A stretch of DNA of 64,000 bases from Bacteroidota bacterium (GTDB taxonomy: Bacteria; Bacteroidota; Ignavibacteria; OLB7). Position numbers and translations under genes: made by a program. Positions 15,672-61,034 of the stretch are shown here, in pieces. The notes under the pieces are model-generated. The model saw only the letters and a list, made by a program, of their open reading frames with translations. It was not told where the DNA came from and did no database searches. The stretch is from positions 15,215 through 79,214 of the forward strand of contig JAFDZV010000039.1 of NCBI GenBank assembly GCA_018266795.1, given 5' to 3'. Positions within the stretch are counted from its first letter, which is position 1. Every line of letters starts with the position of its first letter.

Positions 15672-15782
15672 TTCAGGCTTCGTGCCCGTCCCCGGCGCAA
15701 CGTTGTTGCAGCCGGGGATGCGGCGCGGCGGCCGATCGGTCTCGCTCTTTGCTACGTGAAGAAATAACCTGGAGATAGAACA

Positions 15783-16835
15783 ATGAAAAAGCTCTACGGG
15801 TTCGGTCTGGCGGTGGCGCTCTGTGTAGGCGCGTGCACCTCCACGCTGATTGCCCAGGATAATAGTGGGAACGTCAACTCGGCTCCGCGCGACTTCTCGA
15901 AGATCGGTGCGGGTCTGGGCAACTTCCTGAATATTCCCGTAGGTGCTCGTGCCATCGGCATGGGCGCCTCGTTTACCGGCGTGGCGGATGATCCCACGGC
16001 GCTCTACTGGAACCCGGCCGGGATCATGCAGGGGAAGGGCGCGAGTGCGAACTACAGCTTCGCATCGCTCTTCGCCGGCATCACACACAACTTCGCCGGT
16101 GTCACGATTCCGATCGGCGAGTCGTACAAGGCCGGCGTCAGCGCGGTGAGCTACGGCTCCGATGATATCCCGGTCACCACCCTCTTCCAGCAGGATGGAA
16201 CCGGCGAGCGCTATCAGGTGCGCGATCTGGCACTGGGCCTCACCTTCGCAGGACAGCTTACCGAGCAGTTCTCGTTCGGCATTACCGGCAAGTTCGTGAA
16301 CCTCGCATTCGCGACGGAGTCCGCAAGCGGCGTTGCGTTCGATGTCGGTACGCTGTACAAGCCCGGTATCCTGGGCCTTCGCCTTGGATTCGCCGTGCAG
16401 AACCTCTCGACGCCGATGAAGTACACGGGCAATGGTCTCGTGCAGACCGGTGGGTTCAACCAGACCACCGGCTATCAGAATCCTGATGTGCAGCTCGAAG
16501 CAACCGAGGCCTCGCTTCCGCTCACCTTCCGTGCCGGTCTTGCGGCCGACGTGCTCGAAGGCGACGAAATGCAGAAGCTGCTGGTGAGCACGGAGTTCTC
16601 CACGGCCTCCGATCGCGGCGAGTTTGCCTCGCTCGGTGCGGAGTACACCTGGAACAACCTGCTCAGCGCCCGCGCCGGCTATCAGTTCGGCTCCAGCGAA
16701 GCATATGGAATCAGCGCCGGTCTCGGTATCCGGTATCAGACCGGTGGTTTCCTTGGGCAGATCGATTACGCAATCCGTCCTCACAAGACGCTTGGTCTCG
16801 TGAACCAGATTTCGGCATCGGTCTGGTTCAACTGA
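15783..16835 (+). CDS. PorV/PorQ-family (FadL-like) outer-membrane beta-barrel
   Basis: Signal peptide. N-terminal motif GNFLNIPVGARAIGMGASFTGVADDPTALYWNPAGI is characteristic of PorV/LptO-type T9SS shuttle barrels and the UPF0164 family. Beta-strand periodicity runs to the C-terminal SASVWFN. Confidence 0.65.
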   Translation: MKKLYGFGLAVALCVGACTSTLIAQDNSGNVNSAPRDFSKIGAGLGNFLNIPVGARAIGMGASFTGVADDPTALYWNPAGIMQGKGASANYSFASLFAGITHNFAGVTIPIGESYKAGVSAVSYGSDDIPVTTLFQQDGTGERYQVRDLALGLTFAGQLTEQFSFGITGKFVNLAFATESASGVAFDVGTLYKPGILGLRLGFAVQNLSTPMKYTGNGLVQTGGFNQTTGYQNPDVQLEATEASLPLTFRAGLAADVLEGDEMQKLLVSTEFSTASDRGEFASLGAEYTWNNLLSARAGYQFGSSEAYGISAGLGIRYQTGGFLGQIDYAIRPHKTLGLVNQISASVWFN

Positions 16836-16894
16836 TCCAACCGCTGCATGCGCGTTTCCAACGTCATGCATTGCTGAGACAGACGTGAAACGAT

Positions 16895-38865: not shown

Positions 38866-39540
38866 CTATGCTTTGGCATGTGTTCCGTCAATTTTCGAGA
38901 ACGATCGTATCCGCGGCACGTCAAAAATTTCTCCGATCGCGCTGCCGTGGTCAAGCGCCCACACCATGGCACTGGCAAGCTGCTCGCGCCTGACCGAACG
39001 GGCTCGCCGGGCCACGTCGCCGATCGTTCCGGGCAGACAGCTCAGTGCTGCAAGGACCGGTTCCATCACGATCGGCCACTCCTGACCCGGGCCGAGAATG
39101 AACGACGGGCGATAGATGGTCCAGTCCAGGCCGGCGTCCAGTACTATGCGCTCCGCCCGCGCCTTGCACTGCACATAGTAGCTGTTGCCGATTGCGCCGG
39201 CGCTCAGCAGCAGTATGCGCCGGACTCCGGTTCTCGTCATCGCCTCGGTTACCGAGCGCACCGAACCCACATCCACATCCTCGTACGTTCTTCCGGTTCT
39301 CTTGGTCTCCGCCCGGCGAATGCCTACCAGATGCACCACGCCATCGCAGCCATCCAGTGCCTCGGCAAGCGAGTCGGCGTCCAGTACATCTCCCGCGGCG
39401 GCGGTGACCCCTTCGATACGCGGAACGCGTGCCAGCGACTCGGGGCGTACCACCATGCGCACCGTATGTCCGGCAGTTGCCAGGGCAGGAACCACGGCGC
39501 TCCCTACGAAGCCGGTTCCGCCTGTCACGAGAATGTGCAT
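38866..39540 (-). CDS. NAD(P)-binding SDR/NmrA-like oxidoreductase
   Basis: Rossmann motif MHILVTGGTGFVGSAVV. Atypical-SDR length (224 aa) and a Y-x3-K-like YYVQCKARAE. Confidence 0.82.
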   Translation of the reverse strand: MHILVTGGTGFVGSAVVPALATAGHTVRMVVRPESLARVPRIEGVTAAAGDVLDADSLAEALDGCDGVVHLVGIRRAETKRTGRTYEDVDVGSVRSVTEAMTRTGVRRILLLSAGAIGNSYYVQCKARAERIVLDAGLDWTIYRPSFILGPGQEWPIVMEPVLAALSCLPGTIGDVARRARSVRREQLASAMVWALDHGSAIGEIFDVPRIRSFSKIDGTHAKA

Positions 39541-39855
39541 GAAGTTGCTTCCAATCTATATGATCCGCGGTTCCCGAGTGAGCCATCACCGCCGGCCGGA
39601 TACTCTCCCGAACCGTCGAACGCGGGAACGCATTGTTCAGTATCGCAACGGACGGGTCGCGATGTAATCATCCGATCTAATGCACTGAAATCCAACGTAA
39701 TGCTTGATGCTGGCATTCGTTCTTCGTAACATTCACACTACGTTGATCTTGCCCCAATGGATTGCATGCAAGTCCGTCCGGTGTTGATGCAACCATTCCG
39801 GCGGAAGGTGTGCAACAGGTGAATGACGCGGCCATCGCGAATCCAAAGGATCGGT

Positions 39856-40929
39856 ATGCAGCTCGAGACTGTACGAAAATACGCCGGGGTAGTTGTGGCG
39901 CTGGCGCTCTTCGCATGTTCCACGGCGGCAGCTCAGTCCGGCGTGACCGTACAGTTGTTCCAGCCGCCGCCGAACCAACTCAAGATCGCTGACCTCTGGC
40001 GTATCAAGCTGGTCAACAACACGCAGACCACCTACACGGTATGCCTGTTCGGCACATTGGATGAGACGGCGCTCGGCAAGCGACTCGTTGATGCCACCAC
40101 CGCGCAGTTCAGGTTGCCGCCGGGAACGAAGCTGATCACCGGATCGGACATTCAGCCGATCGACGCGAACTACTACGACGATCGCTACAAGCAGATCTTC
40201 ATGCGCACCGGGCAGGCACCGGCCGGCGAATACCGGATCTGTGTCGAGGTGCGTCTCGAATGCGGCGCGCAGGTGCTGGCTCGCGATTGCAAGGATCAGC
40301 ATGTGCAGCCGCTTACTCCGCCCGTGCTGATTGCGCCGGCAAATGAATCTACGGTGCCGGACAAGCTCCCAACCTTCAGTTGGTTGCCGCCGTCTCCTCT
40401 CGGGCGCGGCCAGTCCATGCGCTATGAGTTGAAGATCGTCGAAGTGCTTGGCCGCCAGACTCCGTACGATGCCATGGGCTCCAACCCCGCATGGTTCCTG
40501 CGGGGCCAGATCGTTCCCACCGTTCAGCAGTATCCGATCTCGTCGCGCGCCTTCGTCAAGGGAAATACCTATGCGTGGAAGATCGCGGCTTCGAGCGACG
40601 GGATACCGATGGGGGAGAGCGAGATCTGGTGGTTCATCTACAATCCCACCAGCCTGATCGGCGGCAACGACGGAGGGGGGCGCATCGTGAACGACTCGCT
40701 CCAGGCCCATCTCACCGGCAGCAAGAATCCGATTGTGCCCGCGTATCAACCAACCACCCATGGTGTGATCACCATCGATCCCACGGACATCGGCACCAAC
40801 GAGCTGAAGTTCTTCGGCGATCCGACAAAACTCATCCCAGACAGGATCGAAGTCATCCCAACCGCAGATCAGTTGAAGAAGGATTTCCTGGAAGTCTACA
40901 AGGAGCTCCTTCGTTCGTGCAATGATTGA
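39856..40929 (+). CDS. hypothetical secreted protein, first gene (A) of the giant-protein operon
   Basis: ORF track starts at 39823; the ATG at 39856 gives MQLETVRKYAGVVVALALFACSTAAAQS (signal peptide). Two beta-rich modules, the second with a PTFSWLPP...YELKIVEV...YAWKIAA pattern (Ig/FN3-like). No family recognised. Confidence 0.65.
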   Translation: MQLETVRKYAGVVVALALFACSTAAAQSGVTVQLFQPPPNQLKIADLWRIKLVNNTQTTYTVCLFGTLDETALGKRLVDATTAQFRLPPGTKLITGSDIQPIDANYYDDRYKQIFMRTGQAPAGEYRICVEVRLECGAQVLARDCKDQHVQPLTPPVLIAPANESTVPDKLPTFSWLPPSPLGRGQSMRYELKIVEVLGRQTPYDAMGSNPAWFLRGQIVPTVQQYPISSRAFVKGNTYAWKIAASSDGIPMGESEIWWFIYNPTSLIGGNDGGGRIVNDSLQAHLTGSKNPIVPAYQPTTHGVITIDPTDIGTNELKFFGDPTKLIPDRIEVIPTADQLKKDFLEVYKELLRSCND

Positions 40930-41100
40930 CGGTTCCTGCCGGCCCGGGCGCCTCCGCTGCACCATGTGTGATGCCGGGCTCGCCTGCGTGGCTGCGGCAA
41001 TGAACCAGCCGGCATCCGAATTATGCGTGCCGTCCATGAAATGGTAAAGCGATCGCCTCGCTGTTCCGCAATTCCATAGCCCCCAGGGAGATCCAAGACC

Positions 41101-44100
41101 ATGAGACCAACACGGCTGAACCTCGCTGCGCTCAGGAGCAATCTCATACCTCGCTCCAGGCGTCCGCGCGACATCGAGGAGGTGATCGCGCAGCAGGGCG
41201 GTCCGGCTCTGTCGCGTCGTGAGATGCTCGGGCTGGTTGGCGGCGCAACGCTTGCGGCGACGCCGGCCGTGGCCTCTGTGCGTACGATGCTCGCCGACGG
41301 CTTCGAGGTGGTTGCCGGCAGTGACCGCGTTGCCCTGATGCTTGGCGGGCAGGAGCGATGGGCGATCGATGCGCGGGCCTTCGCGGGATCGCCCCGCCTC
41401 ACAGTGGAGCGGACGGAGCGCCGCATCGTGATCGAGCTCGCCGGCGCGCGCTATCCCGGCACCGCCATACCGGCCGACCTGCGATGCGAGATCCGTCCGG
41501 GTCTCGTGCGCCGTACAATGTCCATGGAGATGGCCGTTGGCGGCTTCTCCTGCTCGATGCAGCTCGAACGCTGGCTGCTTGGCGTCGAGCCGGCCCGCGC
41601 GCGCGTGCAGCTTCCCGGCCACGAGTGTTCGTTCGAAACCGGCAGCAGTCTCACCCTCTCTGGGAGCGGCGTTGCGAGCTTCACCCCGGACTGGTGCCTG
41701 GATCTCGAGGGCGGATCCATCGCCTCGCTCGCCGGCTTTGGCGGAGCGGTACATGCCGACGCCGTGCAGATAGCGCTTCCCGACGGTGCTGCGCCCAGCC
41801 TGCTGGACGATCGGCCGCAGCGCCGCACGCTTGTCTCGATCCAGCGTGGAGAGCAGCGCTGGGCCATCGATCCCGGGGCCCGCGATTTCGGCGGCTGGAA
41901 CTTCCGCGGGCACGGCGAATCGTTCGACTCCGTGCGCGCGGAGTTTGCGGAGCATCACGACGGCCGTACCGAGAGCGCTCTCGTCGCCGACGGTGCCGGC
42001 GAGAACGTTCGCCTGGAGGCGTTGATGCACGATGCCTATCGCAACGTCGAGGGCGCCCCGTTCGGCATTCCTCTTCGCAACGTTCGCTACGCCGTTGCGT
42101 TCAACGGCAGCGGACGTCATGCGGCGGTGGTGGCCAACTACTCGGCGGAGCCGGCCTGGCTGCATACCGATGGCGTAAGCGTGTTGCTTGGTGACGATGA
42201 GGAGCGTCGGCTCTTCGAGCTGAGCGGGGCCAACGGCACGGTGGAGTCGCAGGAGGTGTCCCCCGCAATGCTTGCCACCGTTGTCCCGCTGGCCGGTGCC
42301 GCAATCACACGCCCTGCAGCGCTCCCGAAGGGGACCCGCCTTGCGGTTGTGAACGATTCGCGTCCGGAGATACTTGCCGGCCATGCGAACCACATCGCCT
42401 TCAATCCGAACCAGCCGGACGACACCCCCTCGATGCTTCTCGGCAAGGCGGCGGCGATCGTCGTGCGCCCGAGCGATCTCGTCTTCCTCGTCTTCGCATT
42501 CGTCGGGATGAAGCTCTCGCCGAAGTCCGGAACCGGCAAGGCCACGTACGAACGTACGGGCGGCGACGCGAAGATTCTGGTGGGATTCCAACCGCAGAAC
42601 ATCGCGGAGGAGGCGTTCTTCGAAACGGCGAGCGGCTATCCGGTTGCCACGGGGAATCCGAGCGATCCGGACAAGTCCAGCGATGGGAAGGATGGCACGC
42701 CGGCCATTCCCGCTCCCTACGCTCCGCCGGTGCGTGCGCGCATGGCGGGGCCCAGCCGACTCGTCTTCAATGTGCCTCCGGAGGTCAGCTCCATCGAGAC
42801 CACGTTGGAGGACCTGTTGAAGTACTGCGGCCAGATGCCGATGAACGTTGCGCCGCATGCATTGCCGCCGAAGGACCTTTCGTGGCATCTGGTGGCCGCG
42901 AATACCTTCACGCTCTCCAACGCCGGCAAGTTTCTCGGCAACAGCTACAAGATGCAGCTTGCTGCGATGAAGGGGGAGAGCCTCGGCACGAAGGGGGTGG
43001 CGCTCACAACGCCCGGCAAGCTGACCGGAGCGCAACAGCTGATCATGAAGTCCCGCTCGGCAGCGCTCGAGAAGATGGACATGAGCGCGGGGAAGGCATA
43101 CAGGGTTTCGGACAGCGACATCGAAAAGAAGATCGCGGTCGACTACGGCTCCATCGCGGTCACCCGCCCTCAGTTCCGCGCGCCGAAGCTGGACGAGACA
43201 GCGATCGAATCCCCCTATCGTCTCTACATTTCGCCGAACCGCTACGGTGCATGGGCGCATGCGGTGAAGCCGGTGTACGGCATCCGGACCGGGCGGGTGG
43301 AGTTGTGGCATTCGCGCCTCGGCGTGCGCGACGGCACCGGCGTTGACGAGAAGGACCCCCGCCTCCGCACCATTCGCGCGATCTGGGCAACTGATCTGGA
43401 CAAGCTTCCCCCCGGCACGATCCCGGATCATTCGAACGATCCGTTCCGCATGAGCCTGGATGCGTTCGATCGCATCAACATCGCATCGCTTTCATCCGAC
43501 TTCAATCTCACCGGACCGTCCTCGCCCGGCAAGCTGCGCCCTCCGTATCTGCCGTTGCCGATCGCAACGGAGCGGCTCATGCTCAGTTCGCTCGGCGCGT
43601 GGATGAATGTTCGCGGAGTGTGGCCGCGCGATACCATGCCGCTCGGCTTCTCCGTGGAGGAGTGGACGCATCGTGCCGCGATGGGACGCGATACGTTCGT
43701 GCGCGTCGTGTATGCCGGCTTCCTCTTTCCCTTCGGGCACTACGCCTCGGTGATCAAGATCACGGAGCGGAAGTTCCAGCCGCATCCGGGCAATCCCGCG
43801 GTGAAGGTTGCCTATCTCCGCCAGCGGATGTTCATCGTGGTGCGGCAGCCGGAAGTGACACTTCGCGTGAGCGGCCTCGCGATCAAGGACTTCGTTACCG
43901 GCACGGACGGCATCAACATCGATCTGCAGATGCCGTTCACGAGCGCGCGCATCACCACGCTCATCACGCCGAATCTGGACCCGCCGGAGTTGAGCGAGAT
44001 CTGGCCCGGCAAGAAGCAGGGGGCGTTCTGGCCGCGTGTCAACAATCAGGATTTCCAGTTCCACATGGTGCTGAAGGATGTGGACGGCAACAATGTGGAA

Positions 44101-46167
44101 CTGACGATGCCGCTGGTGTTCATCGGCAAGGAGGAGAACGATCGCCCGTCCGGCTCCACGCTGATCCCGAACATCTGCGTGCAGTACGAGAAGGCCGCCA
44201 ACAAGGACCGGCGCGAACGGCCGGTGAACGGGCAGCGCATTGCGTTCACCGAGAGCGTGAAGCCTGGCGATACGCAGTTCGAGACGGACACCGTCGTCTT
44301 CGGCGTGCAGTCCCCCACGGGCACCACGTACGACTCCATCCCGTCCACGCATCCGCGATACTTCCCGGTGGTTCGCCGGGCCGATCTGCGGCTTCCGGCC
44401 GCGCAGCATCTCACCGGCAACAACAATCCAACCTCGGTTGTCTTTGCTGACCTCTTCCTCAAGGAAGGATATCTGGGCGGCAATCCCGGGCAGGTGTTCT
44501 TCCAGCTTCTTCCCGGAAAGGAGCTGAACTTCGACTTCAATTCGAAGGGTGACCGCTCCGGCGGCCTGGTGAAGCCGAACATGAAGATCAGCGCCCTCTC
44601 GCGCCTCTCCGGCCCGATAGCCGGCGATGATGCGGTGAGCAAGTTCGGCGCCAGCGGGCAGTTCAACCCCAAGGATTTCTTCGGCAGCTTCGGCGGCATT
44701 CAGGCGAAGCTTTTCGGCGTGATCGATATCTGGGACATCATCGATGCCATCGGCGTAGACAAGAGCGACCTGATTCCAAAGTTCGTGACCGAGGCGCTGA
44801 ACGTAGTCGAAGGATTCCTGCAGGATATCGAGACCTTCCTCGGCTATGTTGACGAAGTGAAGAAGGCTGGCGGGACGATCGCAACCGTGATGACGAATCT
44901 GAAGGCCGACATCCAGAACATCATTGCCGCGAAGGACGATCTCTCAACGCTTCCATCGGCGATCGATACGTTCATCACGCACTTCAATGCGCTCCCCGGC
45001 GGCTACATCACCATCCCGACCACGGCCTCGATGCAGGACGGGATTCGCCGCGAGGCCGAGAAGAAGCTGAATCAGTTCCGGCAGTTGATCGATTCCGGTG
45101 CGGCGTTCGTGGATGCCGTTCAGAACTTCGCCAAGGCGATCGAGATGGCGAAGGAGATGAAGGTGAAGTTCGAGTGGAAGCCGGAGCTGCACGACTGGGG
45201 CTTCGATGCGGGCCATCCGCTCTTCATCGCCAACAACAAGGGGACCAAGGCGGTGTTCCTGATCTCGGTGGAGGTGCGTGCCAAGACCAACGGCAACAGC
45301 TCGCCGTCGATCGATGTGATCTGCGGTCTGGAGAACTTCACGCTGGATCTGATCGCACCGGCCAGCTTCATCAAGCTCTACTTCGACAAGGTGGAGTTCG
45401 TTGCAACGGCGGGCAAGAAGCCGGAGGTGAACGTTGGCCTTTCCAACATCGAGTTCGTTGGCGTGCTCTCGTTCGTGGAGGCCCTGCGCTCGCTGATTCC
45501 GCTCGATGGCTTCAGCGATCCGCCCGGCATCGACGTCTCCGCCGAAGGGATCAAGGCCAGTTACTCCGTGTCGCTCCCGAACATCGCGTTCGGCGTCTTC
45601 AGCCTGCAGAACATCTCGCTGGGAGCGGGCTTCTGCATCCCGTTCATCGGCCAGCCGCTCAGCGTCAACTTCAACTTCTGCACGCGCGAGAATCCGTTCC
45701 TGCTCACCGTCTCGATGATCGGCGGCGGCGGCTTCTTCGGCCTCACCATCGATCCTAGCGGCGTTCAGATTCTCGAAGCGGCCTTCGAGTTCGGAGCAAG
45801 CCTTGCGCTGGACTTCGGCGTTGCGAGCGGCGAGGTGCATATCATGGCCGGCATCTACTTCAAGATGCAGGCCGGCGACTGCACACTGACCGGCTATCTG
45901 CGAATCGGCGGCTCCGTGGATGTGCTCGGGTTGATCACCGCCTCCATCGAACTGAAGATGGAGCTCACCTACGAGTTCTCCTCCGGCAAGTGCGTCGGGC
46001 GTGCCACGCTCACCATCGAAGTGGAGGTGCTCTTCTTCAGCGCGAGCGTGGAGATCAGTTGCGAGCGGAAGTTCGCCGGCTCCAACGGCGATCCGTCGTT
46101 CCGCGCGCTGATGGAGCCGGAGGATACCTGGCATCCATGGGATGATTACTGCGAGGCGTTCGCCTAG
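41101..46167 (+). CDS. 1688-aa uncharacterised protein (B) with twin-arginine (Tat) signal and beta-rich amphipathic C-terminal module
   Basis: SRREMLGLVGGATLAATPAVAS matches the Tat consensus S-R-R-x-[FM]-L plus an h-region and an AxA-like site. Ordinary codon and amino-acid usage over 5 kb. The antisense 1232-aa ORF is Arg/Ala/Gly junk. No catalytic motif recognised. Confidence 0.8.
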   Translation: MRPTRLNLAALRSNLIPRSRRPRDIEEVIAQQGGPALSRREMLGLVGGATLAATPAVASVRTMLADGFEVVAGSDRVALMLGGQERWAIDARAFAGSPRLTVERTERRIVIELAGARYPGTAIPADLRCEIRPGLVRRTMSMEMAVGGFSCSMQLERWLLGVEPARARVQLPGHECSFETGSSLTLSGSGVASFTPDWCLDLEGGSIASLAGFGGAVHADAVQIALPDGAAPSLLDDRPQRRTLVSIQRGEQRWAIDPGARDFGGWNFRGHGESFDSVRAEFAEHHDGRTESALVADGAGENVRLEALMHDAYRNVEGAPFGIPLRNVRYAVAFNGSGRHAAVVANYSAEPAWLHTDGVSVLLGDDEERRLFELSGANGTVESQEVSPAMLATVVPLAGAAITRPAALPKGTRLAVVNDSRPEILAGHANHIAFNPNQPDDTPSMLLGKAAAIVVRPSDLVFLVFAFVGMKLSPKSGTGKATYERTGGDAKILVGFQPQNIAEEAFFETASGYPVATGNPSDPDKSSDGKDGTPAIPAPYAPPVRARMAGPSRLVFNVPPEVSSIETTLEDLLKYCGQMPMNVAPHALPPKDLSWHLVAANTFTLSNAGKFLGNSYKMQLAAMKGESLGTKGVALTTPGKLTGAQQLIMKSRSAALEKMDMSAGKAYRVSDSDIEKKIAVDYGSIAVTRPQFRAPKLDETAIESPYRLYISPNRYGAWAHAVKPVYGIRTGRVELWHSRLGVRDGTGVDEKDPRLRTIRAIWATDLDKLPPGTIPDHSNDPFRMSLDAFDRINIASLSSDFNLTGPSSPGKLRPPYLPLPIATERLMLSSLGAWMNVRGVWPRDTMPLGFSVEEWTHRAAMGRDTFVRVVYAGFLFPFGHYASVIKITERKFQPHPGNPAVKVAYLRQRMFIVVRQPEVTLRVSGLAIKDFVTGTDGINIDLQMPFTSARITTLITPNLDPPELSEIWPGKKQGAFWPRVNNQDFQFHMVLKDVDGNNVELTMPLVFIGKEENDRPSGSTLIPNICVQYEKAANKDRRERPVNGQRIAFTESVKPGDTQFETDTVVFGVQSPTGTTYDSIPSTHPRYFPVVRRADLRLPAAQHLTGNNNPTSVVFADLFLKEGYLGGNPGQVFFQLLPGKELNFDFNSKGDRSGGLVKPNMKISALSRLSGPIAGDDAVSKFGASGQFNPKDFFGSFGGIQAKLFGVIDIWDIIDAIGVDKSDLIPKFVTEALNVVEGFLQDIETFLGYVDEVKKAGGTIATVMTNLKADIQNIIAAKDDLSTLPSAIDTFITHFNALPGGYITIPTTASMQDGIRREAEKKLNQFRQLIDSGAAFVDAVQNFAKAIEMAKEMKVKFEWKPELHDWGFDAGHPLFIANNKGTKAVFLISVEVRAKTNGNSSPSIDVICGLENFTLDLIAPASFIKLYFDKVEFVATAGKKPEVNVGLSNIEFVGVLSFVEALRSLIPLDGFSDPPGIDVSAEGIKASYSVSLPNIAFGVFSLQNISLGAGFCIPFIGQPLSVNFNFCTRENPFLLTVSMIGGGGFFGLTIDPSGVQILEAAFEFGASLALDFGVASGEVHIMAGIYFKMQAGDCTLTGYLRIGGSVDVLGLITASIELKMELTYEFSSGKCVGRATLTIEVEVLFFSASVEISCERKFAGSNGDPSFRALMEPEDTWHPWDDYCEAFA

Positions 46168-46266
46168 CAGGCCCGCGCAAGCCGCCTCCGGACCGGCGCG
46201 CCGGCCGCACGGACTCCGTTACCGAACACGAAGCGAATTATCATTGCTCACTCAGGATAGAAGGTC

Positions 46267-49200
46267 ATGCCAAGCCAAAAGATTGTCTGGACTGCATTGC
46301 CCAAGGGAGTTCAGGAAGGGACGATGAGACTCTCGGTGTACGTGTCGCCGCGCCTCACGCCCCCCGGAGGGAGCGGCAAGCTGGGCTCCTTCCCGGACTT
46401 CTGGAATCCAGCAAAGCATCACTGGCCCGGCCTGGTTGGCGAACGTACGTTCGAGCTGGAGTTCCGCGTTGGAGGGGGGGCGAAGGTGGCGAAGGGATCG
46501 TTCTCCGATGGAACCAAGTTCGATGCCGATCTCTGGGCCGCGCTCTTCAACGACAAGACGCTGGTGAAGGCATTCAACTACACCGATCTCAGCACCCGCT
46601 TCATCCACAGTTATCCGGTGCGCACGGTGCTCGAGTACGTGAAGGGGATCTATCGTACGGTTGCCGGTTCGCCTACCCGCTTCCCGCGGCTTTCGCCGCT
46701 CAAGGACGACATGCCGATCCCGGACCTGCACGATCTGCTCGGGACGCTCGGCTCCGTCGCAAAGGACGAACGCTGGCAGCGCAAGCCATGGGACCCGACA
46801 CGATACGTGAAGGATCAGAAACTGAAGGTGCTGGATCCGGGCAAGTACAACTCCTATGGTTTCAGTTCGCCGGAGCAGATGGCGTTCGCGGAGGTGAATC
46901 GGTTTTACGACCGCCCGCACGCCGGCAATCCGTATCGCGAGTCGCCCGATCCCGGGCTGGCCGGCGTTCGCCATCGCCTGCCGGTGGAGAAGCCGGACTT
47001 CCACGCGATGCTCTCCGCGCTTGCGGACTATCCGCCGCTGATGCGGAAGCTGGGCATCGTGATCGACCTCGATGTGGTGATCCCGCCCGGCGAGTCGCTC
47101 GGGAGCCTGCTTGCTGCCGATGCGGTGCGTGTGAAGGCGGCCTCGAGCCAGGAGTACTCCCCATGGACCCGCATGAACAAGGAGTTCGTTCCGGTGCCGC
47201 GCGGCGGGAGCGATATCCGCGACGGCATGCTGCGGCTGGATGATGGAGACCTCTTCGAGATGGTGCAGGTGGATGCGGACTCCGTGGGCCTGAAGACGCT
47301 GCAGTTCGCAGGCTCCATGGAGCGCGTTGCGGCCGCGCGTTCCTCGTCGCAGCCGGGTGTGAACTACACCGTTCCGAACGAGGCATCGCTTCCCGCGGTG
47401 CGCACCTCCGGCATCGGCGTTGCGCGCAACAACCGTGCAATGGGCGTCGCGCAGCGCCTGGTGAACTCCAAGCAGTTGGATACCGCGCTCGCATCGAACA
47501 CGCCCGCCGATCTCTACGCCGACGATCTGGTGCGCGGGTATCGCGTGGATGTACGCGAGTCCGGCGGGGACTGGCGCTCACTCTGCTTCCGCAGCGGCAG
47601 GTACGTGCTGCTTGGTGGTTCGTATCCGGAGCTGAATCTCGATGACGAGGGATACGTCAAGAGCGCATCGTCCACCTCCACCAACGACGGCGTACCAACC
47701 GACGACGAACTCTATCTGCACGAGAATCTGTTCCAGTGGGATGGCTGGAGCCTGTGCGCATCGATGCCCGGACGCACCATTGTTCCGCAGACCTACGATG
47801 CCACGGGGAAGCCGCTCGTGCATCAGGAGGAGAAGGTGGAGAAGCCGGGCAACAAGGCCGTGGACGGTGTGAACATGGAGGTCTCCACCGGACCGCAGCC
47901 CGGCACGCTGCCGCGCCTGCGATACGGACGGAAGTATCAGATGCGGGCGCGCATCGTGGATCTCGCCGGCAACAGCGTTCCGTTGAAGGTCCCGGGGTCG
48001 TGGAAGAATGCGGACCCGGAGTGGGTCGCCATGTCCGTGGCGGATCATCCAACCGAGGTGATGACCTATTGCCGCTTCGAGCCGGTTCCGTCGCCCGCGC
48101 TGGTGCCGCGCGTTGCCTACGGCGAAGGGGAGTCCGCGGAGCGTGTGGTGATCCGGAGCAACTTCGACAAGACCACCGCCGAGTACATCGCGCAGGACTA
48201 TGTGAAGAAGGCGATCGACGGGAAGTGGTATGTCTATGCCGAGAACAGCGAGCGCCACGTTGTGCCGCCGAAGACATCGCAGTTGGCGGCCGAGACGCAT
48301 TCGCTGTTCGACGAGTGGATCGGCAAGGGGAGGTCGCACGAGAAGGCGTACAACATCTCCGTGAAGGAGGCGGGGACGCTGCTCGACACAGCGGTCGTGG
48401 ACATCTCCACCGGCACTGCAAGCCTTGCCGCGGACGGCATCGGCATCGTGACGCCGGCAGGCACGCCAACTCCGCACGCGGTGCTTCCGGGAACGCCCGC
48501 CGGTCCGGGCGAATACGTGCTGGACTCCGGCGGCCGTCTTGCCGCGGGCCAGTACGTGGTGCACAACACGTCCAAGCTGATTCTCCCCTATCTCCCCGAT
48601 CCCTTCGCACGCGGTGCCGCGTTCAGAGGGCTGCCGAAGGTGGATGCACCCGGCACGATTGCCGGCGGGCTTCACAAGGTGAAGCTGGGGCCGGCGTACG
48701 ACGGCGTGGTATTGAAGGTACCGTTCGAGGGCAACTGGCCGGAAGCAGCGCCGTTCCGCCTTCAGGTTGTGGAAGGAACCGGTGAACCCTCGTGGAACGC
48801 AGGCGAGCGGCTGCTGACTGTGCCGGTGCCGAAGGGACGCGTGGCCCATGTGATCTACAGCAGCTACATGGGGAAGGACCCCAAGACCTCCGTGCCGGAC
48901 TTCAGGTTGATGGGGCTCTCCAAGTGGAGCGACGATCCCGACGCCAAGCTGGGGCCGTTCTCCGAGACGGGAGGCCACTGGATGCTGACGCCGTTCCGGA
49001 ATCTCGAACTGGTGCATGCGGTTCAGCAGCCGTTGAAGGCGCCGGTGTTCTACAAGTCGCAGGTGCGGAAGTGGAAGATCGGCGACACCTACGTGAACAT
49101 CTACGGATTCATCGATCACGATGCACAGAGCACGATGAAGCTGGAGGTGGCCGCCGAATGGTTCGATCCGATCGACAGCCTCACGGCCGATGCGCCGGAT

Positions 49201-50751
49201 GACGATCCTGCTCCGGGAGGGACGGAGCGCTTCAATCATCGCGGCGTTGTCTTCTCCACACATGTCGACGACGACGCGCCGGACCTCCTGGCAATCCATT
49301 GCCCCGACGATGACGGCATCGGCCTGCCGCAGAGCTACTTCAAGGGGTTCCCCGGTGTGGAACTGCCGGCCGTGCAGGACGGCGATGCCTCCAAGCTGAG
49401 CGTGAATCCGAAGGAGGCCTCCGCTGCAACGAAGGAACCGACGCTCGAGAAGACGCCGGCGGACGGGAGCGGGCTCACACTCTCGAAGGCCGATCCCAAG
49501 CTGATCGGCCTGGAGAAGGCGGGCGACGGCTCCGTCAAGACCGGTGTGGCGCCCGGCAACGCGCCGTGGTGCCGTCATGAATTCCACGATACGAAGCATC
49601 GTTTCGTGAACTATCAGATCACCGCAACCACGCGCTACCGGGAGTACTTCCCGGAGGCGATCGTCAACGACCCGGCGAACATCACGCGTACCGGTGCCCA
49701 GTGGAAGAGCGTCAACATTCTCAACTCCGCAAGGCCGGATGCGCCGAAGGTTCTCTACGTTGTTCCAACGTTCGGATGGGAGGAGAAGAAGATCGGTGAC
49801 GAACTGGTAAGCCGGCGCTGCGGCAACGGCCTGCGGGTCTATCTGGATCGCCCGTGGTACTCCTCCGGCATCGGCGAGCTGCTTGGCGTCGTGGTGCGGA
49901 GCCAGAGCAACTTCAGCATAGGCAAGTTCGAGGGGCCGCTGAAGCCGTATCTGACCGATGTGGGGATGGATCCGATCTGGGGATCGGAGTTTACTCCCTC
50001 CACGCTGAAGATCAGCGACTTCCCGCTTGCAACGCATGGGGAGTACGGGCTCACGCTGGATGAGATCGGCGGGTATCAGGTTGGTGTTGCCGGGCATGCG
50101 GTGGATTACGACAAGGAGCGGCAACTGTGGTTCGCGGATATCGAGATCGACGCCGCCGACAGCTACTATCCGTTCGTGCGCCTTGCGCTTGCCCGGTATC
50201 AACCGGACTCCATCCCCGATGCGCATCTCTCGCGCGTGGTGATCACGGATTTCGCGCAGCTTGCTCCGGATCGCATCGCCGCGGTCCTTTTCGATCCGAA
50301 GGATGCCAAGAAGGTGGTGGTTGCCGTCTCCGGACCGTACGGAACGTCGAACCACGCACCGAACGCAACGAAGTTCAACACCTATCTTCAGGGCTCCAGC
50401 AAGGATCCCACCACGTTGGCTGTGCAGGGGATGTCGCGCATCCTGCAGGTTACCGTGGAGACGCGCATTGCCGGTTCGCCGAAGGATGCGCCGTGGCTGC
50501 TTCTAGGCGGAACGGCCGGTACGGCGATACTGCAGCCGGTTGAGAAGAACGAATCGAAGATGATCTGGCAGGGGGAGCTCACATTGCCGGAGGAGGCGCG
50601 GAAGCCGGGCGGACGGCAATATCGTCTGGTGATCACGGAGATCGAGATGCTTCCCGCCGACAACGGCGTACAAATGCCGGCGTTCAGCGACTACAAGTTC
50701 GAGCCGATCGCCACACGTCTCGTCTACGCAGATGCAATCGAACTTCAATAG
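46267..50751 (+). CDS. 1494-aa uncharacterised protein (C), no signal peptide
   Basis: Starts MPSQKIVWTALPKGVQEGTMRLSVYVSPRL. Uniform protein-like composition. Lies 99 nt after gene B and 11 nt before gene D. No P-loop, HExxH, protease, repeat-toxin or T9SS CTD motifs seen. Confidence 0.8.
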   Translation: MPSQKIVWTALPKGVQEGTMRLSVYVSPRLTPPGGSGKLGSFPDFWNPAKHHWPGLVGERTFELEFRVGGGAKVAKGSFSDGTKFDADLWAALFNDKTLVKAFNYTDLSTRFIHSYPVRTVLEYVKGIYRTVAGSPTRFPRLSPLKDDMPIPDLHDLLGTLGSVAKDERWQRKPWDPTRYVKDQKLKVLDPGKYNSYGFSSPEQMAFAEVNRFYDRPHAGNPYRESPDPGLAGVRHRLPVEKPDFHAMLSALADYPPLMRKLGIVIDLDVVIPPGESLGSLLAADAVRVKAASSQEYSPWTRMNKEFVPVPRGGSDIRDGMLRLDDGDLFEMVQVDADSVGLKTLQFAGSMERVAAARSSSQPGVNYTVPNEASLPAVRTSGIGVARNNRAMGVAQRLVNSKQLDTALASNTPADLYADDLVRGYRVDVRESGGDWRSLCFRSGRYVLLGGSYPELNLDDEGYVKSASSTSTNDGVPTDDELYLHENLFQWDGWSLCASMPGRTIVPQTYDATGKPLVHQEEKVEKPGNKAVDGVNMEVSTGPQPGTLPRLRYGRKYQMRARIVDLAGNSVPLKVPGSWKNADPEWVAMSVADHPTEVMTYCRFEPVPSPALVPRVAYGEGESAERVVIRSNFDKTTAEYIAQDYVKKAIDGKWYVYAENSERHVVPPKTSQLAAETHSLFDEWIGKGRSHEKAYNISVKEAGTLLDTAVVDISTGTASLAADGIGIVTPAGTPTPHAVLPGTPAGPGEYVLDSGGRLAAGQYVVHNTSKLILPYLPDPFARGAAFRGLPKVDAPGTIAGGLHKVKLGPAYDGVVLKVPFEGNWPEAAPFRLQVVEGTGEPSWNAGERLLTVPVPKGRVAHVIYSSYMGKDPKTSVPDFRLMGLSKWSDDPDAKLGPFSETGGHWMLTPFRNLELVHAVQQPLKAPVFYKSQVRKWKIGDTYVNIYGFIDHDAQSTMKLEVAAEWFDPIDSLTADAPDDDPAPGGTERFNHRGVVFSTHVDDDAPDLLAIHCPDDDGIGLPQSYFKGFPGVELPAVQDGDASKLSVNPKEASAATKEPTLEKTPADGSGLTLSKADPKLIGLEKAGDGSVKTGVAPGNAPWCRHEFHDTKHRFVNYQITATTRYREYFPEAIVNDPANITRTGAQWKSVNILNSARPDAPKVLYVVPTFGWEEKKIGDELVSRRCGNGLRVYLDRPWYSSGIGELLGVVVRSQSNFSIGKFEGPLKPYLTDVGMDPIWGSEFTPSTLKISDFPLATHGEYGLTLDEIGGYQVGVAGHAVDYDKERQLWFADIEIDAADSYYPFVRLALARYQPDSIPDAHLSRVVITDFAQLAPDRIAAVLFDPKDAKKVVVAVSGPYGTSNHAPNATKFNTYLQGSSKDPTTLAVQGMSRILQVTVETRIAGSPKDAPWLLLGGTAGTAILQPVEKNESKMIWQGELTLPEEARKPGGRQYRLVITEIEMLPADNGVQMPAFSDYKFEPIATRLVYADAIELQ

Positions 50752-50762
50752 GCCGGTGCAGT

Positions 50763-52757
50763 ATGAACCGAATGCTTTCCGTGGACAGGAGATGGATGTG
50801 GCTTGCGATTGCGGTGCTCGCGCTGCTTGCAGCGCCTGTGGCGTTCACCGGTGTGATCCACGCGCAGCCGGCCGGACTGCCGGCCGGGTTGCCGCCGCCC
50901 TCACCCGATGACATGCCGGGGCCGCTGGTGTTCTCCGGTTCGTCGCGCATCTACGGGCAGATCGCCAACAGGCGCGGGACGTATCAGTACACGCCAGAGG
51001 ACTTCGCGACGCTCGAGCTTCATCCGTCGCTCGCATTCTACGGCGCCCCCTTCACGCTCAATGTTCTCCTCTCCACGGAGCAAAGCACCTATCGGCAGAA
51101 CATCAACAGCGTCAGCTTCGATTTCGACTATCACAAGCTGGAGGGGACGCTGCTGGACCGCGCGTACGCGAAGCTCGGCGAGCTGGACGACCTCAAGGCA
51201 CTCGCCGAGGCAACCGGCGGCGTGGAGAAGCTTCGCGATTCGCTGGAGCGCGTCGGCTCCGACAAGCTGCGCGATGTGGATCATCTGAAGGACTATGCCG
51301 ATCTGGACAGGCTGAAGGATCATGCGCTCTCCGAAGGGATCGACAAGCTGGACGAACTGGGGCTCGTCTCCGGGGCCGAGAAGTTCTTCGCAAACTTTCC
51401 GGCGATCAGTGTCGGCGTCACCTATCCGAACTACACCAGCCTCACGCTCAGTTCCGTTCCGGTCACGGGATTCAACATCGAATGGAATCCGGGCAACTTC
51501 TACATCGCCACATGTGCAGGGAGGGCGCAGCAGGCAATCGTTGTTCCCGGCGTTGTGGGGAATGTATCGGGCGTGGTGGACTCCGTGCTGGTGAACCCCG
51601 CCTACTCGCGCAAGCTCTACGCGGCGCGCATCGGCTACGGAAAGAAGGAGGGGGCGCATGTGATCCTCACCGGCGTGTACGCGAAGGACGATCAGAGTTC
51701 GCTGCCGTTGGATACCAACGGCTCACCGCTCACCCCGATGGCCAACTACGTTCTCGGCCTGGACGTGAGCGTGCCGATCGTGGAGAAATATCTGGATGTG
51801 CAGGGGGAGGTGGCCGGCTCCATGCTGACCGGGGATATCTCCGCGGCCCAGATCAAGAGCAACGATATTCCGGACTTCATCCGCACCACGTTCGATCCCA
51901 ACATCTCCAGCCTGATCGACTATGCGTACGCCGGCAAGGCCGTTCTGCATGTGCCGGAGAGCGGCACGAAGCTCAGCGCGTCGATACGGAAGATCGGTCC
52001 GGTGTTCTTCTCTCTCGGTGTGCCAACCCTTCGCAACGACAATCTTCGATGGGAGGGACGTCTGGAGCAGCGGCTGCTCGATGGCCGCATCAATGCCGCG
52101 GCCTACTACAAGCACGATCAGGACGATCTGTATCCCGGATTGCAATCCTCGCTCTCCACCATCACGTCGCTCGGCCTCTCGCTCGGGTTGAACTTCCCGA
52201 ACCTTCCCTATCTGCGGCTGGAGTATGCGCCGTATCAGCAGCGGTACTCGCGGACGGAGGACAATGCCGATGTCGTGAACAGGACCACGCTCCTCTCCGC
52301 ATCGGCGGGATATTTCTACAGGATCGGCGGGCTTCGTGCCGGCACCACCGCGTCCTATTCGTCGCAGCAGAGCAACACGTTCGAGGCGCTGAGCGATTAC
52401 GGCGTTGCCACTGCATCCATCGGCCAGAGCATCACGTTCGACGTCCCGCTCATGCTTCAGGCCGGCTTCACAACCTCCAGCCTCAGCGCCGGCGACAGCG
52501 CCCAGCATATCATCTCGTTCGACCTTGCAACCTCCTACACGGCGTTCAAGATCTGGACCAACACCGTCGGCGTAACGCTTGCGGACCAGAGCGGTTCCGA
52601 CAACACCCTCGGCTTCTCGCTCACCAGCTCCGTACAGCTCTGGCAGAACGGATTCTTCGAGGTGCGTGCCGAGAAGAACGCATACAAGAATCTCCTGGTT
52701 ACGGCGGCCAACTTCGATGAGTTCCTCTTCACGGCATCGTTGGTGACTACCTGGTGA
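50763..52757 (+). CDS. predicted outer-membrane beta-barrel protein (D) with a helical DxLK/RD-repeat insert
   Basis: Signal peptide (WMWLAIAVLALLAAPVAFTGVIHAQP). Long runs of alternating hydrophobic/polar residues with Gly/Tyr/Ser/Thr/Asn bias. C-terminal aromatic residue (FTASLVTTW). Confidence 0.65.
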   Translation: MNRMLSVDRRWMWLAIAVLALLAAPVAFTGVIHAQPAGLPAGLPPPSPDDMPGPLVFSGSSRIYGQIANRRGTYQYTPEDFATLELHPSLAFYGAPFTLNVLLSTEQSTYRQNINSVSFDFDYHKLEGTLLDRAYAKLGELDDLKALAEATGGVEKLRDSLERVGSDKLRDVDHLKDYADLDRLKDHALSEGIDKLDELGLVSGAEKFFANFPAISVGVTYPNYTSLTLSSVPVTGFNIEWNPGNFYIATCAGRAQQAIVVPGVVGNVSGVVDSVLVNPAYSRKLYAARIGYGKKEGAHVILTGVYAKDDQSSLPLDTNGSPLTPMANYVLGLDVSVPIVEKYLDVQGEVAGSMLTGDISAAQIKSNDIPDFIRTTFDPNISSLIDYAYAGKAVLHVPESGTKLSASIRKIGPVFFSLGVPTLRNDNLRWEGRLEQRLLDGRINAAAYYKHDQDDLYPGLQSSLSTITSLGLSLGLNFPNLPYLRLEYAPYQQRYSRTEDNADVVNRTTLLSASAGYFYRIGGLRAGTTASYSSQQSNTFEALSDYGVATASIGQSITFDVPLMLQAGFTTSSLSAGDSAQHIISFDLATSYTAFKIWTNTVGVTLADQSGSDNTLGFSLTSSVQLWQNGFFEVRAEKNAYKNLLVTAANFDEFLFTASLVTTW

Positions 52758-58967: not shown

Positions 58968-61034
58968 TCAGTGTACCACGGTCAGCTTCGTGGTGGCGAT
59001 TGTGGCGTTGTGAACATCGAGCGTTGCGATGTACGCGCCTGCAGGCACGTTCGCGCCCGGTGTCCACGTTGCATGGTAGTCGCCCGTGCCGAGATGCTGA
59101 TCAAGGATCGTTGCAACCCGCTCGCCGTTGCTGTTGTAGATGTTCACCGTCACCGGACCTTGAGCATTCAGGTGGAAGCTCAGCATCGTGGATGTTGTGG
59201 CCGGGTTGGGGCTTGCGCTTCCGGTGAAGAATCCGGCCGGCGCCGCCATGCCGAGCGGGCTGCCACCATCGTCGCCGCGAACGGCGCTGGTTGTCAGCTT
59301 CTTGATGTAGTCGTAGCCACGGTGCGGCGGTGCCATGTACGGGAACGTGTTGCGGAACGGTAGATCGTTCGCCTCCGGACCCGCGGAGTATCCCAGTACG
59401 CCGAGCAGATTCGGGGTTACCGGGCTGCCGCCGGACTGATAGTCGTCGTACCAGAGGCCGATCGCCGCCAGCGCAACACCGCCTACCGCCTGCAGCTCGA
59501 TGCGCGTAACATCATCCTCCAGACGGCGGCCGTTGGGGAAGCCGTCCATGTTCGGGATCCACTGGATGTTCGTGTTCGCATAGGTGGGATCGGTGAGGCC
59601 CAGCACCGCAGTGGCGATGATTCCCTCGGAGCTGAACTGCGGATGGTTGCGCGGCGTGACCGGCGTTGCCATGTTCAATCGCAGCATGTCGCCGAGCGAC
59701 GGAAGGAAGTTGTTGATGAACGGCTTGCCTGCCGAAAGCGGTCCGCCGGTCTTGCCGGTTGCGAGCTGATACGGCGCCAGGTTCGGAACGCCGGTGTAGA
59801 AGATCGGGAGCAGATCGGCCGCGCGCGGCGACATGCTGTCCGGAAGGAGAATGGGGCCGAACGCCGCATCACTCAGTGCCGTTCCCTGACGCGCGCTCTC
59901 CGGCAGACCGTACAGACCCTTGTGGCCGTTGCGGAAGTCGAATGCGCCGAGCGAGTTGCTCTGGACGCGGAGTGCGGAAAGCGCCGGAACTGCGCCGCCG
60001 AACTTGCTGTCGTCCATGTAGAGCGCAAGCTCCGGGTTGACGAAGTAGGGAGCGAAGGAGAGTTCGTTGTTACGGTCGTACGGCGACGTGGCGTTCCATC
60101 TGTCCTTTGCGCCGATCGGGATAACGGCCTCGTTCGTCAGCGGCATGCCGAGACGCGAGACCTGCACCCATGGGCCCGATGCGGACGGCTTGTCGCCGGT
60201 GGTGCTGAGCGTGGTGATCTGCTGGCGCGATGCCGAGGCCCACACTCCGATCACGTAGTCGCCGTCGAGAATGCTTGTGGCGTTTGCAACGGACTTGTGA
60301 TCCTTCTGCAGCATCTGGATCGGCACCTGGATGGCGATCGTGTGGCAGTTGAATCCTGCAAGTCCGTCGCGGGCGCGTGCATCACCGGTGCCGTCCTTCA
60401 GCCGGGTCTGGCCCAGGTCGAAGATGCCGCCGAGATCCACGAAGAAGGGATCGTCCACCGGTCCGCAGTAAATCTTCTCGCCGGACGATGCCGTCGCGAT
60501 CGCATCGGTCATCAACTGCTCGTAGCTCTTTCCCATGCCGGCTGCGCCGTCGATGGAGCGCGGGCCGATGTTTGCCGGAGGCACAACGCCGTTGGTCACG
60601 ATCGTTGTCCACGTGTTGCCGCCATCGGTGCTCTTCTCGCAGGTGTAGGTGGTCTTCAGATTCTGCTTGCCCAGACGGATGTTGAAGAAGGTTGTCGGGT
60701 CTTCGTTCGTCTTCGTGAACGTGAAGCGATAGGTGATTTCATCGCCGACCTTCGTGGCATCGTTGTCGATGTGGATCTCGTAGCGGATGTTCTCCCCGAA
60801 GCTGTAGTAGTTCGGTCCTCCTTCCGGAAGTTCCAACGGGATGTAGTTCGCGATGAGCGTAACGGTGTTGGTGTCGTCCGGACTGCGGAAGGCGTAGAGA
60901 TCGGTGTTGTCGGCCAACGGGTCGTTGGCGATCAATGGCGCCTCGCGGTGACTCGAGGCATATCCCATTCCCACGGCAAGGCTTATGCCCGCCGCGGCTA
61001 ACAGGAGTGCGCTCCTGGTGCGTAGAGTTCGCAT
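58968..61034 (-). CDS. DUF4331 domain protein with T9SS C-terminal sorting domain
   Basis: The N-terminus after the signal peptide, SSHREAPLIANDPLADNTDLYAFRSPDD, is the hallmark DUF4331 start. The last ~80 aa, SASPNPATTSTMLSFHLNAQGPVTVNIYNSNGERVATILDQ...GAYIATLDVHNATIATTKLTVVH, form a T9SS CTD. Confidence 0.88.
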   Translation of the reverse strand: MRTLRTRSALLLAAAGISLAVGMGYASSHREAPLIANDPLADNTDLYAFRSPDDTNTVTLIANYIPLELPEGGPNYYSFGENIRYEIHIDNDATKVGDEITYRFTFTKTNEDPTTFFNIRLGKQNLKTTYTCEKSTDGGNTWTTIVTNGVVPPANIGPRSIDGAAGMGKSYEQLMTDAIATASSGEKIYCGPVDDPFFVDLGGIFDLGQTRLKDGTGDARARDGLAGFNCHTIAIQVPIQMLQKDHKSVANATSILDGDYVIGVWASASRQQITTLSTTGDKPSASGPWVQVSRLGMPLTNEAVIPIGAKDRWNATSPYDRNNELSFAPYFVNPELALYMDDSKFGGAVPALSALRVQSNSLGAFDFRNGHKGLYGLPESARQGTALSDAAFGPILLPDSMSPRAADLLPIFYTGVPNLAPYQLATGKTGGPLSAGKPFINNFLPSLGDMLRLNMATPVTPRNHPQFSSEGIIATAVLGLTDPTYANTNIQWIPNMDGFPNGRRLEDDVTRIELQAVGGVALAAIGLWYDDYQSGGSPVTPNLLGVLGYSAGPEANDLPFRNTFPYMAPPHRGYDYIKKLTTSAVRGDDGGSPLGMAAPAGFFTGSASPNPATTSTMLSFHLNAQGPVTVNIYNSNGERVATILDQHLGTGDYHATWTPGANVPAGAYIATLDVHNATIATTKLTVVH

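Follow-up and report, generated by a model that had tools for sequence, protein, structure and literature searches.

The question raised by this locus is what two giant proteins without a recognizable family do between two smaller genes whose products appear to be directed to the outer membrane. The locus lies in a stretch of 64,000 nucleotides from a Bacteroidota bacterium of the Ignavibacteria (OLB7; contig JAFDZV010000039.1), which was analysed as a whole and is hereafter called the window. It consists of four genes on the plus strand: A (39856-40929; 357 aa from the ATG at 39856, with the longest open reading frame (ORF) starting at 39823; 40.7 kDa), B (41101-46167; 1688 aa, 182.7 kDa), C (46267-50751; 1494 aa, 163.4 kDa) and D (50763-52757; 664 aa, 72.1 kDa). 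A first-pass annotation, made from the DNA alone, had described them as four same-strand ORFs with gaps of 171 (A/B), 99 (B/C) and 11 nt (C/D) behind a 315-nt divergent upstream region, and the ORF list and the translations confirm this layout. It had also taken the four genes for one dedicated envelope assembly, of which only a part stands: three products (A, B and D) have export signals and D resembles an outer-membrane protein, but only B-C is conserved, about 47 of 74 B proteins lack a signal, and A and D belong to a separate, larger family. Flanked by two apparent helper genes for the outer membrane, the B-C pair has the look of a system not yet described, and we consider it very likely that B and C form a conserved two-protein unit that is targeted to the envelope in this lineage.

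At least 447 homologues of C were found in the protein collection, none of them with a Pfam domain, and a scan of GTDB genomes, one for each species, confirmed at least 559 C-encoding stretches; the distribution of the best 80 loci is given below. In each locus with sufficient upstream DNA, which is the case for about 75 loci of more than 12 phyla, a homologue of B lies directly 5' of C; the gap between the two has a median of 19 nt, and four pairs overlap. The order is kept even in a very distant pair (2687 + 1790 aa; L092), which adjoins mobile-element genes. Furthermore, clustering of 5751 flanking ORFs revealed no general conserved neighbour besides A, D and tatA. Thus, given the constant order, the short gap and the absence of any other conserved neighbour from these flanks, B-C is a unit, and the conserved unit is B-C alone, not A-D as four. 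The best reading of the pair is an autonomous, horizontally spread two-gene cassette. The size of the B family itself was less directly accessible, as a word-indexed search with B gave 29 homologues and its repeat with a B profile gave the same 29, a number that reflects the word index and not the family.

Carriers of B-C include both monoderms and diderms. Among the best 80 loci, the Fibrobacterota-Chlorobiota-Bacteroidota (FCB) side is represented by Kapabacteria, Chlorobiota, Rhodothermales and Balneolia; the Actinomycetota by Streptomyces, Amycolatopsis, Kitasatospora, Embleya and Actinoallomurus; the Bacillota by Paenibacillus alvei, P. mendelii, Anaerobacillus, Symbiobacteriaceae and Clostridia. 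Acidobacteriota, Chloroflexota, Armatimonadota, Verrucomicrobiota and Alpha-, Beta- and Gammaproteobacteria are also found there. The pair is also found on its own, with neither A nor D, in Acidobacteriota, Actinomycetota, Bacillota, Chloroflexota, Pseudomonadota, Nitrospirota, Armatimonadota and Verrucomicrobiota. Co-occurrence across phyla, put forward as a check on all four genes, extends to more than 12 phyla for B-C; A and D accompany the pair only in the FCB group. B-C is also carried on megaplasmids or chromids, namely in the Bacillus cereus group (B. wiedmannii, B. tropicus, B. cereus and B. bombysepticus; for example, BCA37052 and BCA37051 on pBwiPL1-1), on plasmids of Rhizobium and Streptomyces, and in Cupriavidus metallidurans CH34. 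The last of these, together with Paenibacillus alvei, Amycolatopsis nalaikhensis and Litoreibacter, provides cultured and tractable carriers. Two strictly paired families of 1000-1800 aa, present in hundreds of species (soil Acidobacteriota among them), unannotated, and with neither a solved relative nor a Foldseek analogue, represent a sizeable gap in bacterial cell biology.

One subtype of the pair has neighbours of its own, with a GT2 glycosyltransferase gene on the 5' side and, on the 3' side, genes for a 2OG-Fe(II) oxygenase and a 319-aa unknown protein (L043:4667-5611, 14085-14741 and 14738-15697; also L044, L051, L058 and L064). These neighbours hint at post-translational modification.

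Architecture and proposed export of B and C

None of the four proteins gave a significant match in Pfam, NCBIfam, PADLOC or PHROGs, which bears out the earlier statement that B and C hold no recognizable domain. The same is true of the statement that the operon encodes no ATP-binding cassette (ABC), membrane fusion protein (MFP) or ATPase partner, as no such domain was found in A-D with Pfam or NCBIfam. Sequence and profile searches of the PDB (phmmer/profile) returned nothing for B, C, D or the family of A-D fusions described below. When A, three regions of B, C and D were compared with one another by hhalign, the probability was below 1% throughout, including that for the N-terminal domain of B against A; hence, A, B, C and D are four unrelated families. 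We found no description of the B, C or A/D families in the literature. Several known kinds of system were considered and rejected: a prophage tail or contractile injection module (no match in PHROGs or in a tblastn search of C against 50,697 phage records, and only generic matches in BFVD), a known anti-phage defence system (no PADLOC match for A-D), and cargo of the type IX secretion system (T9SS; no Por_Secre_tail-type C-terminal sorting domain in A-D with Pfam or NCBIfam).

B can be divided into five parts, all on the plus strand. A twin-arginine signal peptide (residues 1-58; 41101-41274), with S38-R39-R40-E-M-L, an h-region and A56-V-A58, is followed by an optional N-terminal domain (residues 59-445; 41275-42435) and by a beta-rich core (residues 446-1225; 42436-44775), which the alignment of homologues shows to be universal. 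This core opens with 'RPxDLLxLxFxxxNL' and contains invariant ELWHxRL and RD motifs. Next come amphipathic helical repeats of varying length (residues 1226-1380; 44776-45240), predicted as DSSP helices at positions 743-860 of the model fragment, and finally an amphipathic beta-meander rich in Gly, whose long strands, about 16-18 in number, are joined by tight turns (residues 1381-1688; 45241-46164), as delimited from the AlphaFold model and the alignment. GGGGFFG and the terminal WxxYCxAFA are conserved in this last domain, and hydrophobic and charged residues alternate along its strands. The only hydrophobic segments of B are the h-region of the signal and a single conserved stretch of beta-strand (residues 450-468). 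Pfam searches of 26 B homologues and of distant B-like giants identified no family beyond weak matches to helical repeats (Baculo_PEP_C in 6 of the 26, and an Apolipoprotein-type match in the giant P0150) and TAT_signal matches in two B homologues.

In the AlphaFold model of B (residues 489-1688), the predicted local distance difference test score (pLDDT) averages 69, with residues 688-1128 mostly at 80-95. When this model was compared with the PDB by Foldseek, porins and outer-membrane barrels of 16 to 26 strands ranked at the top (E 2e-4 to 3e-2, probability at most 0.97). Like these, the C-terminus of B is predicted to be an up-and-down meander of amphipathic strands; unlike porins, its turns are tight at both ends, it follows a soluble part of 1300 residues, and it is found in Actinomycetota and Bacillota. 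The C-terminal beta-domain also forms the end of other giants of 2200-2700 aa; in some of 2200-2500 aa (P0150, encoded at L091:10001-16915, P0151 and P0152) it is the only part shared with B, which suggests that it is a portable module. A possible relationship of this domain to the C-terminus of a giant encoded at L093 was tested and rejected (probability 0.12).

C has neither an N-terminal signal nor a transmembrane helix, and no 19-residue window of it reaches a Kyte-Doolittle mean of 1.6. Its N-terminus, M-x(2-4)-Q-x-I-x-W-T-A-L-P-N-G ('MxxQxIxWTALPNG'), is conserved from Met1, and its C-terminus is RxVYADxxEL. Dozens of Asp, Arg, His and Glu residues are invariant across phyla at about 30% overall identity, examples being those in DFH, RGYRVD, DGWS, NERHxAPPKTSQ and LVHAVQQPL. 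The fold is multi-domain and beta-rich, with a low-confidence linker at residues 1014-1098 (nt 49306-49560), in an AlphaFold model (residues 236-1435) with a pLDDT of 80.6 and a predicted template-modelling score of 0.66. Foldseek returned only generic beta-sandwich arrays from the PDB (alpha-2-macroglobulin, complement, transglutaminase, integrin and FN3-rich viral proteins; template-modelling score (TM) at most 0.2), and only generic FN3, lectin and tail-tip matches from BFVD (TM at most 0.18). The best PDB match is Salmonella alpha-2-macroglobulin, and C resembles this protein and complement in being a long chain of beta-rich domains. However, the match (4u48) has an E-value of 9e-4, a probability of 0.21 and a TM of 0.08; there is no MG, A2M or TED match in Pfam; and, unlike in thioester proteins, none of the six Cys residues of C lies in a CxEQ motif, and C carries no signal or lipobox.

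The structure check on B and C thus gave weak and generic matches only, for queries that were whole multi-domain models (B 489-1688 and C 236-1435), so that similarities at the level of single domains may be missed. Filing B or C as a porin, an alpha-2-macroglobulin, a large lipid-transfer protein, TamB, a Tc toxin or a phage tail was rejected, since these matches are weak and at the level of class. By the tests applied, we judge the system to fall outside all the known kinds that they cover.

The signals lie where the first-pass annotation had them: Sec-type on A and D, twin-arginine on B and none on C. The signal of B (SRREMLGLVGGATLAATPAVA, residues 38-58) has an SRRxxL motif, a moderately hydrophobic h-region and an AxA site, as expected of a substrate of twin-arginine translocation (Tat). 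A twin-arginine (RR) signal is present on 27 of 74 full-length B proteins. It goes with the N-terminal domain, which occurs in 22 of the 74 and is preceded by a credible RR signal in 21 of these; six short forms, from Amycolatopsis, Actinoallomurus, an actinobacterial metagenome-assembled genome (MAG), Dehalococcoidales and Aminicenantes, bear the RR signal directly on the core. C is signal-less in all of the approximately 75 loci. A small tatA gene adjoins B-C in four loci, from Symbiobacteriaceae and others (L002:18260-18445, L008:9570-9773, L059:13892-14077 and L073:13908-14084), and the B protein bears a signal in all four.

The Tat system exports pre-assembled complexes in which only one subunit carries the signal and the other travels as a hitchhiker, with PaoABC as a precedent (PMC4273604), and docking of a substrate triggers the recruitment of multiple TatA protomers (PMC13323110). 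Given the RR signal on B, the adjacent signal-less C, the linkage to tatA and these precedents, export of B through Tat with C as hitchhiker is the most economical reading here. The arrangement is the one seen in the hydrogenase small and large subunits, DmsAB and PaoABC, including the tatA linkage of some loci. It differs from these hitchhiker enzymes in that B and C have no cofactor domain (Pfam, NCBIfam) and the operon has no chaperone gene, that the predicted cargo, at 183 kDa or, together with C, 346 kDa, far exceeds the known Tat cargoes in size, and that two thirds of the B family are signal-less. If the Tat reading is true, it extends the accepted size range of folded cargo and offers a natural test of TatA recruitment against cargo size.

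A and D and their own family

A has a Sec signal, a 'QPPPNQLKIADLWRI' domain, a second domain with 'LPxFSWxPPxP ... YAWK', which looks beta-sandwich-like from its sequence, and a conserved C-terminal 'LKELLRSC'. The LFAC Cys in its signal region is not conserved in A orthologues, and we therefore rejected the possibility of a conserved lipoprotein in favour of a secreted protein. The Sec signal of D covers residues 1-34; a charged helical segment lies at about residues 125-200, and residues 200-664 make up a conserved region with strands of alternating hydrophobicity. D ends in ...LVTTW, the final Trp being preceded by alternating hydrophobic residues and conserved in 10 of 10 aligned orthologues. 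D thereby shows both the Sec signal and the C-terminal aromatic beta-signal of outer-membrane beta-barrel proteins; it fits a putative protein of this kind, with ...TTW read as the barrel signal.

In the loci retrieved, B-C is joined by A and D solely within the FCB group (Kapabacteria, Chlorobiota, Rhodothermales and relatives). Five loci of Kapabacteria and Chlorobiota (L006, L010, L015, L017 and L018) have the order A-B-C-D, and three of Balneolaceae and Rhodothermales (L035, L052 and L065) have B-C-D-A, so that the four genes are indeed syntenic elsewhere. The first-pass annotation had named a match to a known machine, or a lack of synteny, as the outcomes that would speak against its proposal; no confident match to a characterised machine emerged, and the synteny is strong. 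One of the A-B-C-D loci, L018 (CAYWXV010000007.1), comes from a MAG labelled 'uncultured Alphaproteobacteria'. Its label or binning is probably wrong, since it shares A-B-C-D and an upstream SMC-family ORF with the Kapabacteria and Chlorobiota loci.

The D family is far more widespread than this association. An exhaustive HMMER search gave 1375 clusters at 50% identity with E<=1e-3, and 653 with E<=1e-10; Pfam found no domain in the members tested, and a single-protein metagenome scan for D or A-D returned nothing. An A-like module is fused to the D region in more than 55 of the 150 best representatives of the family (for example, P0164, P0169 and P0173). These natural fusions make A and D a Rosetta-stone pair and a unit of their own. 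Two of the fusion genes, L093:7454-10231 and L094:4620-7541, adjoin genes for other giant secreted proteins (1366-1787 aa), which have A-like N-terminal modules (40% identity, E 1e-49) and are unrelated to B or C. We conclude therefore that A and D form a unit that goes with the handling, at the outer membrane, of giant proteins of several kinds, and that this unit is combined with B-C in the present lineage. A/D is thus a second unannotated and often fused outer-membrane protein family beside giants in Bacteroidota-like genomes, and a candidate route of surface anchoring or secretion.

With its very large proteins, its predicted D barrel and a periplasmic or surface A, the operon resembles systems of a giant passenger and a barrel, such as two-partner secretion (TPS), autotransporters and TamA-TamB. 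Unlike type V systems, however, A-D have no POTRA, Bac_surface_Ag, ShlB, TPS or autotransporter match in Pfam or NCBIfam, and the signal of B is of the Tat and not the Sec type; moreover, B-C is found in monoderms without a barrel partner, and the D family is independent and often fused to A. The operon is also unlike AsmA/TamB-like transporters, as Pfam finds no AsmA or DUF490 match in A-D and C has no hydrophobic segment.

Possible roles of a proposed B-C complex

The mechanism that we propose for this Kapabacteria-like genome starts in the cytoplasm, where B and C would form a stoichiometric hetero-complex of about 346 kDa. This complex would be exported in its folded state through Tat on the signal of B, with C carried along as hitchhiker. 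A and D, which make up a single chain in many other bacteria, would together represent an outer-membrane protein, with A as its beta-sandwich module in the periplasm or on the surface and D as its beta-barrel. Flanking B-C as they do, they would receive the complex at the outer membrane and dock it, anchor it or pass it on. The effector part would be the C-terminal third of B, its helical repeats and porin-like amphipathic sheet binding to or inserting into a lipid membrane, and C, predicted as a rigid beta-rich array of domains with many invariant charged residues, would serve as a scaffold or recognition subunit. The pair could serve the envelope of its own cell or act on the membrane of another cell. 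We hold that this whole chain, from Tat hitchhiking through docking by A/D to membrane contact, has somewhat less than an even chance of being right in all its links. More tentatively, B-C may be a giant extracytoplasmic complex of a new, membrane-active class, larger than any Tat cargo so far proposed (183 kDa plus a hitchhiker of 163 kDa, with a dedicated TatA in some genomes), and A/D an undescribed outer-membrane docking or secretion module (more than 1300 clusters) that serves several unrelated giant families in the FCB group.

Several points weigh against this mechanism. The porin and barrel matches of the C-terminus of B have a TM of at most 0.3 and a root-mean-square deviation of about 20 Å, and the similarity, seen in a predicted model, is one of class (an antiparallel meander) and not a demonstrated barrel. 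B also ends without the aromatic signal of the beta-barrel assembly machinery (BAM), and its C-terminal domain occurs in monoderms too. To our knowledge, the largest Tat cargoes are of about 150 kDa or less, and a folded B of 183 kDa or a complex of 346 kDa is far beyond this size. The signal-less B proteins include those of Bacillus, Paenibacillus, Streptomyces, Cupriavidus and Litoreibacter; with about 47 of 74 full-length proteins in this group, export is not universal for the cassette, and its core function may be cytoplasmic. Finally, A and D may simply be neighbours of B-C: one locus (L007) retains A without D and has an IS200-type (Y1_Tnp) transposase gene (7691-8564) between B and C. 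SocA/Panacea-type toxin-antitoxin genes were also observed after this locus.

A first alternative is that B-C is a secreted or released two-component toxin that damages membranes, with the beta-domain of B as pore-former and C as the receptor-binding component, exported through Tat and D in diderms and released by lysis or another route elsewhere. The porin-like amphipathic beta-domain would suit such a role, and the patchy distribution is consistent with horizontal transfer. The carriage on megaplasmids in the Bacillus cereus group and the occurrence in Rhizobium, Streptomyces and Cupriavidus point in the same direction, as do the neighbours on pBwiPL1-1 (a phosphatidylinositol-specific phospholipase C, an AvrRpt2-like protease and a non-ribosomal peptide synthetase), the Hcp genes that adjoin the pair in one locus (L005) and the mobile-element genes next to L092. 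As in Tc (ABC) toxins and RHS cocoons, there is a set of several genes for proteins of more than 1000 aa, with long beta-hairpins and with plasmids of insect-associated bacilli among the carriers. However, Pfam and Foldseek found no known toxin, MACPF, aerolysin, RHS or Tc domain; in particular, there is no RHS/YD, TcA, TcB or SpvB match in Pfam, and no Tc toxin or teneurin is among the top 50 Foldseek PDB matches of either model. The clustering of flanking ORFs revealed no conserved immunity gene, and the operons of the window and of its relative L006 lie in a conserved chromosomal neighbourhood (SMC, ECF sigma factor) with a host-like GC content. We regard a toxin as improbable.

Alternatively, B-C may be a large two-subunit enzyme or binding complex that acts on a polymer or another substrate, with a compartment that depends on the lineage and a C-terminus of B that is structural and makes no contact with membranes. 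Such a role would account for the invariant charged residues of C and the invariant ELWHxRL and RD of B. Use of Tat together with signal-less relatives is a typical pattern of enzyme families, and we count it, and the majority of B homologues that are signal-less, in favour of this possibility; the subtype with a GT2 glycosyltransferase and a 2OG-Fe(II) oxygenase is likewise compatible with it. Nevertheless, no catalytic or cofactor-binding domain was found in any library searched, the Foldseek matches are to non-catalytic beta-sandwich arrays, and the clustering of flanking ORFs showed no conserved metabolic neighbours. An enzyme is, in our judgement, unlikely.

A third alternative is that B is a bacterial analogue of the large lipid-transfer and lipid-binding proteins and, with C, carries or stores hydrophobic molecules in the envelope. 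Microsomal triglyceride transfer protein is indeed the second-best Foldseek match of B (1069 columns, E 7.8e-4), TamAB (chains with E 0.02-0.03 and probability at most 0.18) and LptD are also among the matches listed, and the order of beta core, amphipathic helices and amphipathic sheet in B, together with the weak apolipoprotein-type matches, recalls such proteins. However, the match to the transfer protein has a probability of only 0.11 and a TM of 0.06, so that the likeness is one of domain order only, and Pfam finds no AsmA, TamB, vitellogenin or LLTP domain; we consider a lipid carrier very unlikely. Finally, a novel cassette for defence against phages or mobile elements deserves hardly any credence: although B-C is a self-contained, patchy and plasmid-borne two-gene module that adjoins toxin-antitoxin, AAA_21/DUF4276, Fic or D5-primase genes in some loci, it has no PADLOC match and no nuclease, NTPase or sensor domains, a third of the B proteins carry export signals, and in the window the pair has outer-membrane partners and a housekeeping neighbourhood.

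Surroundings of the operon in the window

The operon has a GC content of 0.60-0.64, at the same level as the remainder of the window (0.57-0.65), and is thus host-like, as the spot counts of the first-pass annotation had indicated. The genes around it encode an SMC protein, a ChrR-type anti-sigma factor with an extracytoplasmic function (ECF) sigma factor, a DoxX-like protein and a TonB-dependent receptor; the surroundings are chromosomal housekeeping and envelope genes rather than an island. The same gene neighbourhood is retained in the relative L006 (59% identity).

On the 5' side of A, the divergent intergenic region (39541-39855; 315 nt before the start at 39856) separates the operon from a gene for a protein with a NAD-binding fold (38866-39540, minus strand). 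It contains the 10-nt motif TTCTTCGTAA at 39720-39729, about 130 nt 5' of the start of A. The motif CTTCGTAA/TTCTTCGTAA is common to the regions 5' of A in the window and in L007, L010 and L015, and TTCTTCGTAA has 6 matches in the window at one mismatch or less, against 1.3 expected. It is a candidate promoter or operator element. No sigma-70-like promoter was found on the plus strand in the region 5' of A, and the operon has no Rfam family and no convincing internal terminator. The ECF sigma and ChrR anti-sigma pair is among the divergent neighbours.

Elsewhere in the window, there are genes for a NACHT/AAA_16-TPR protein (26288-29455) and a TPR-LuxR regulator (31347-33143). A DUF4331 protein (58968-61034) has a weak C-terminal Pfam match to FlgD_ig (Ig-like), which may equal a T9SS-type tail noted in the first-pass annotation. 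A minus-strand ORF of 1710 aa (11739-16871), Arg/Ala-rich, was rejected as a further giant gene, being an antisense artefact; the true gene opposite it is at 11760-15671 (plus strand) and encodes a protein of 1303 aa with a signal peptide.

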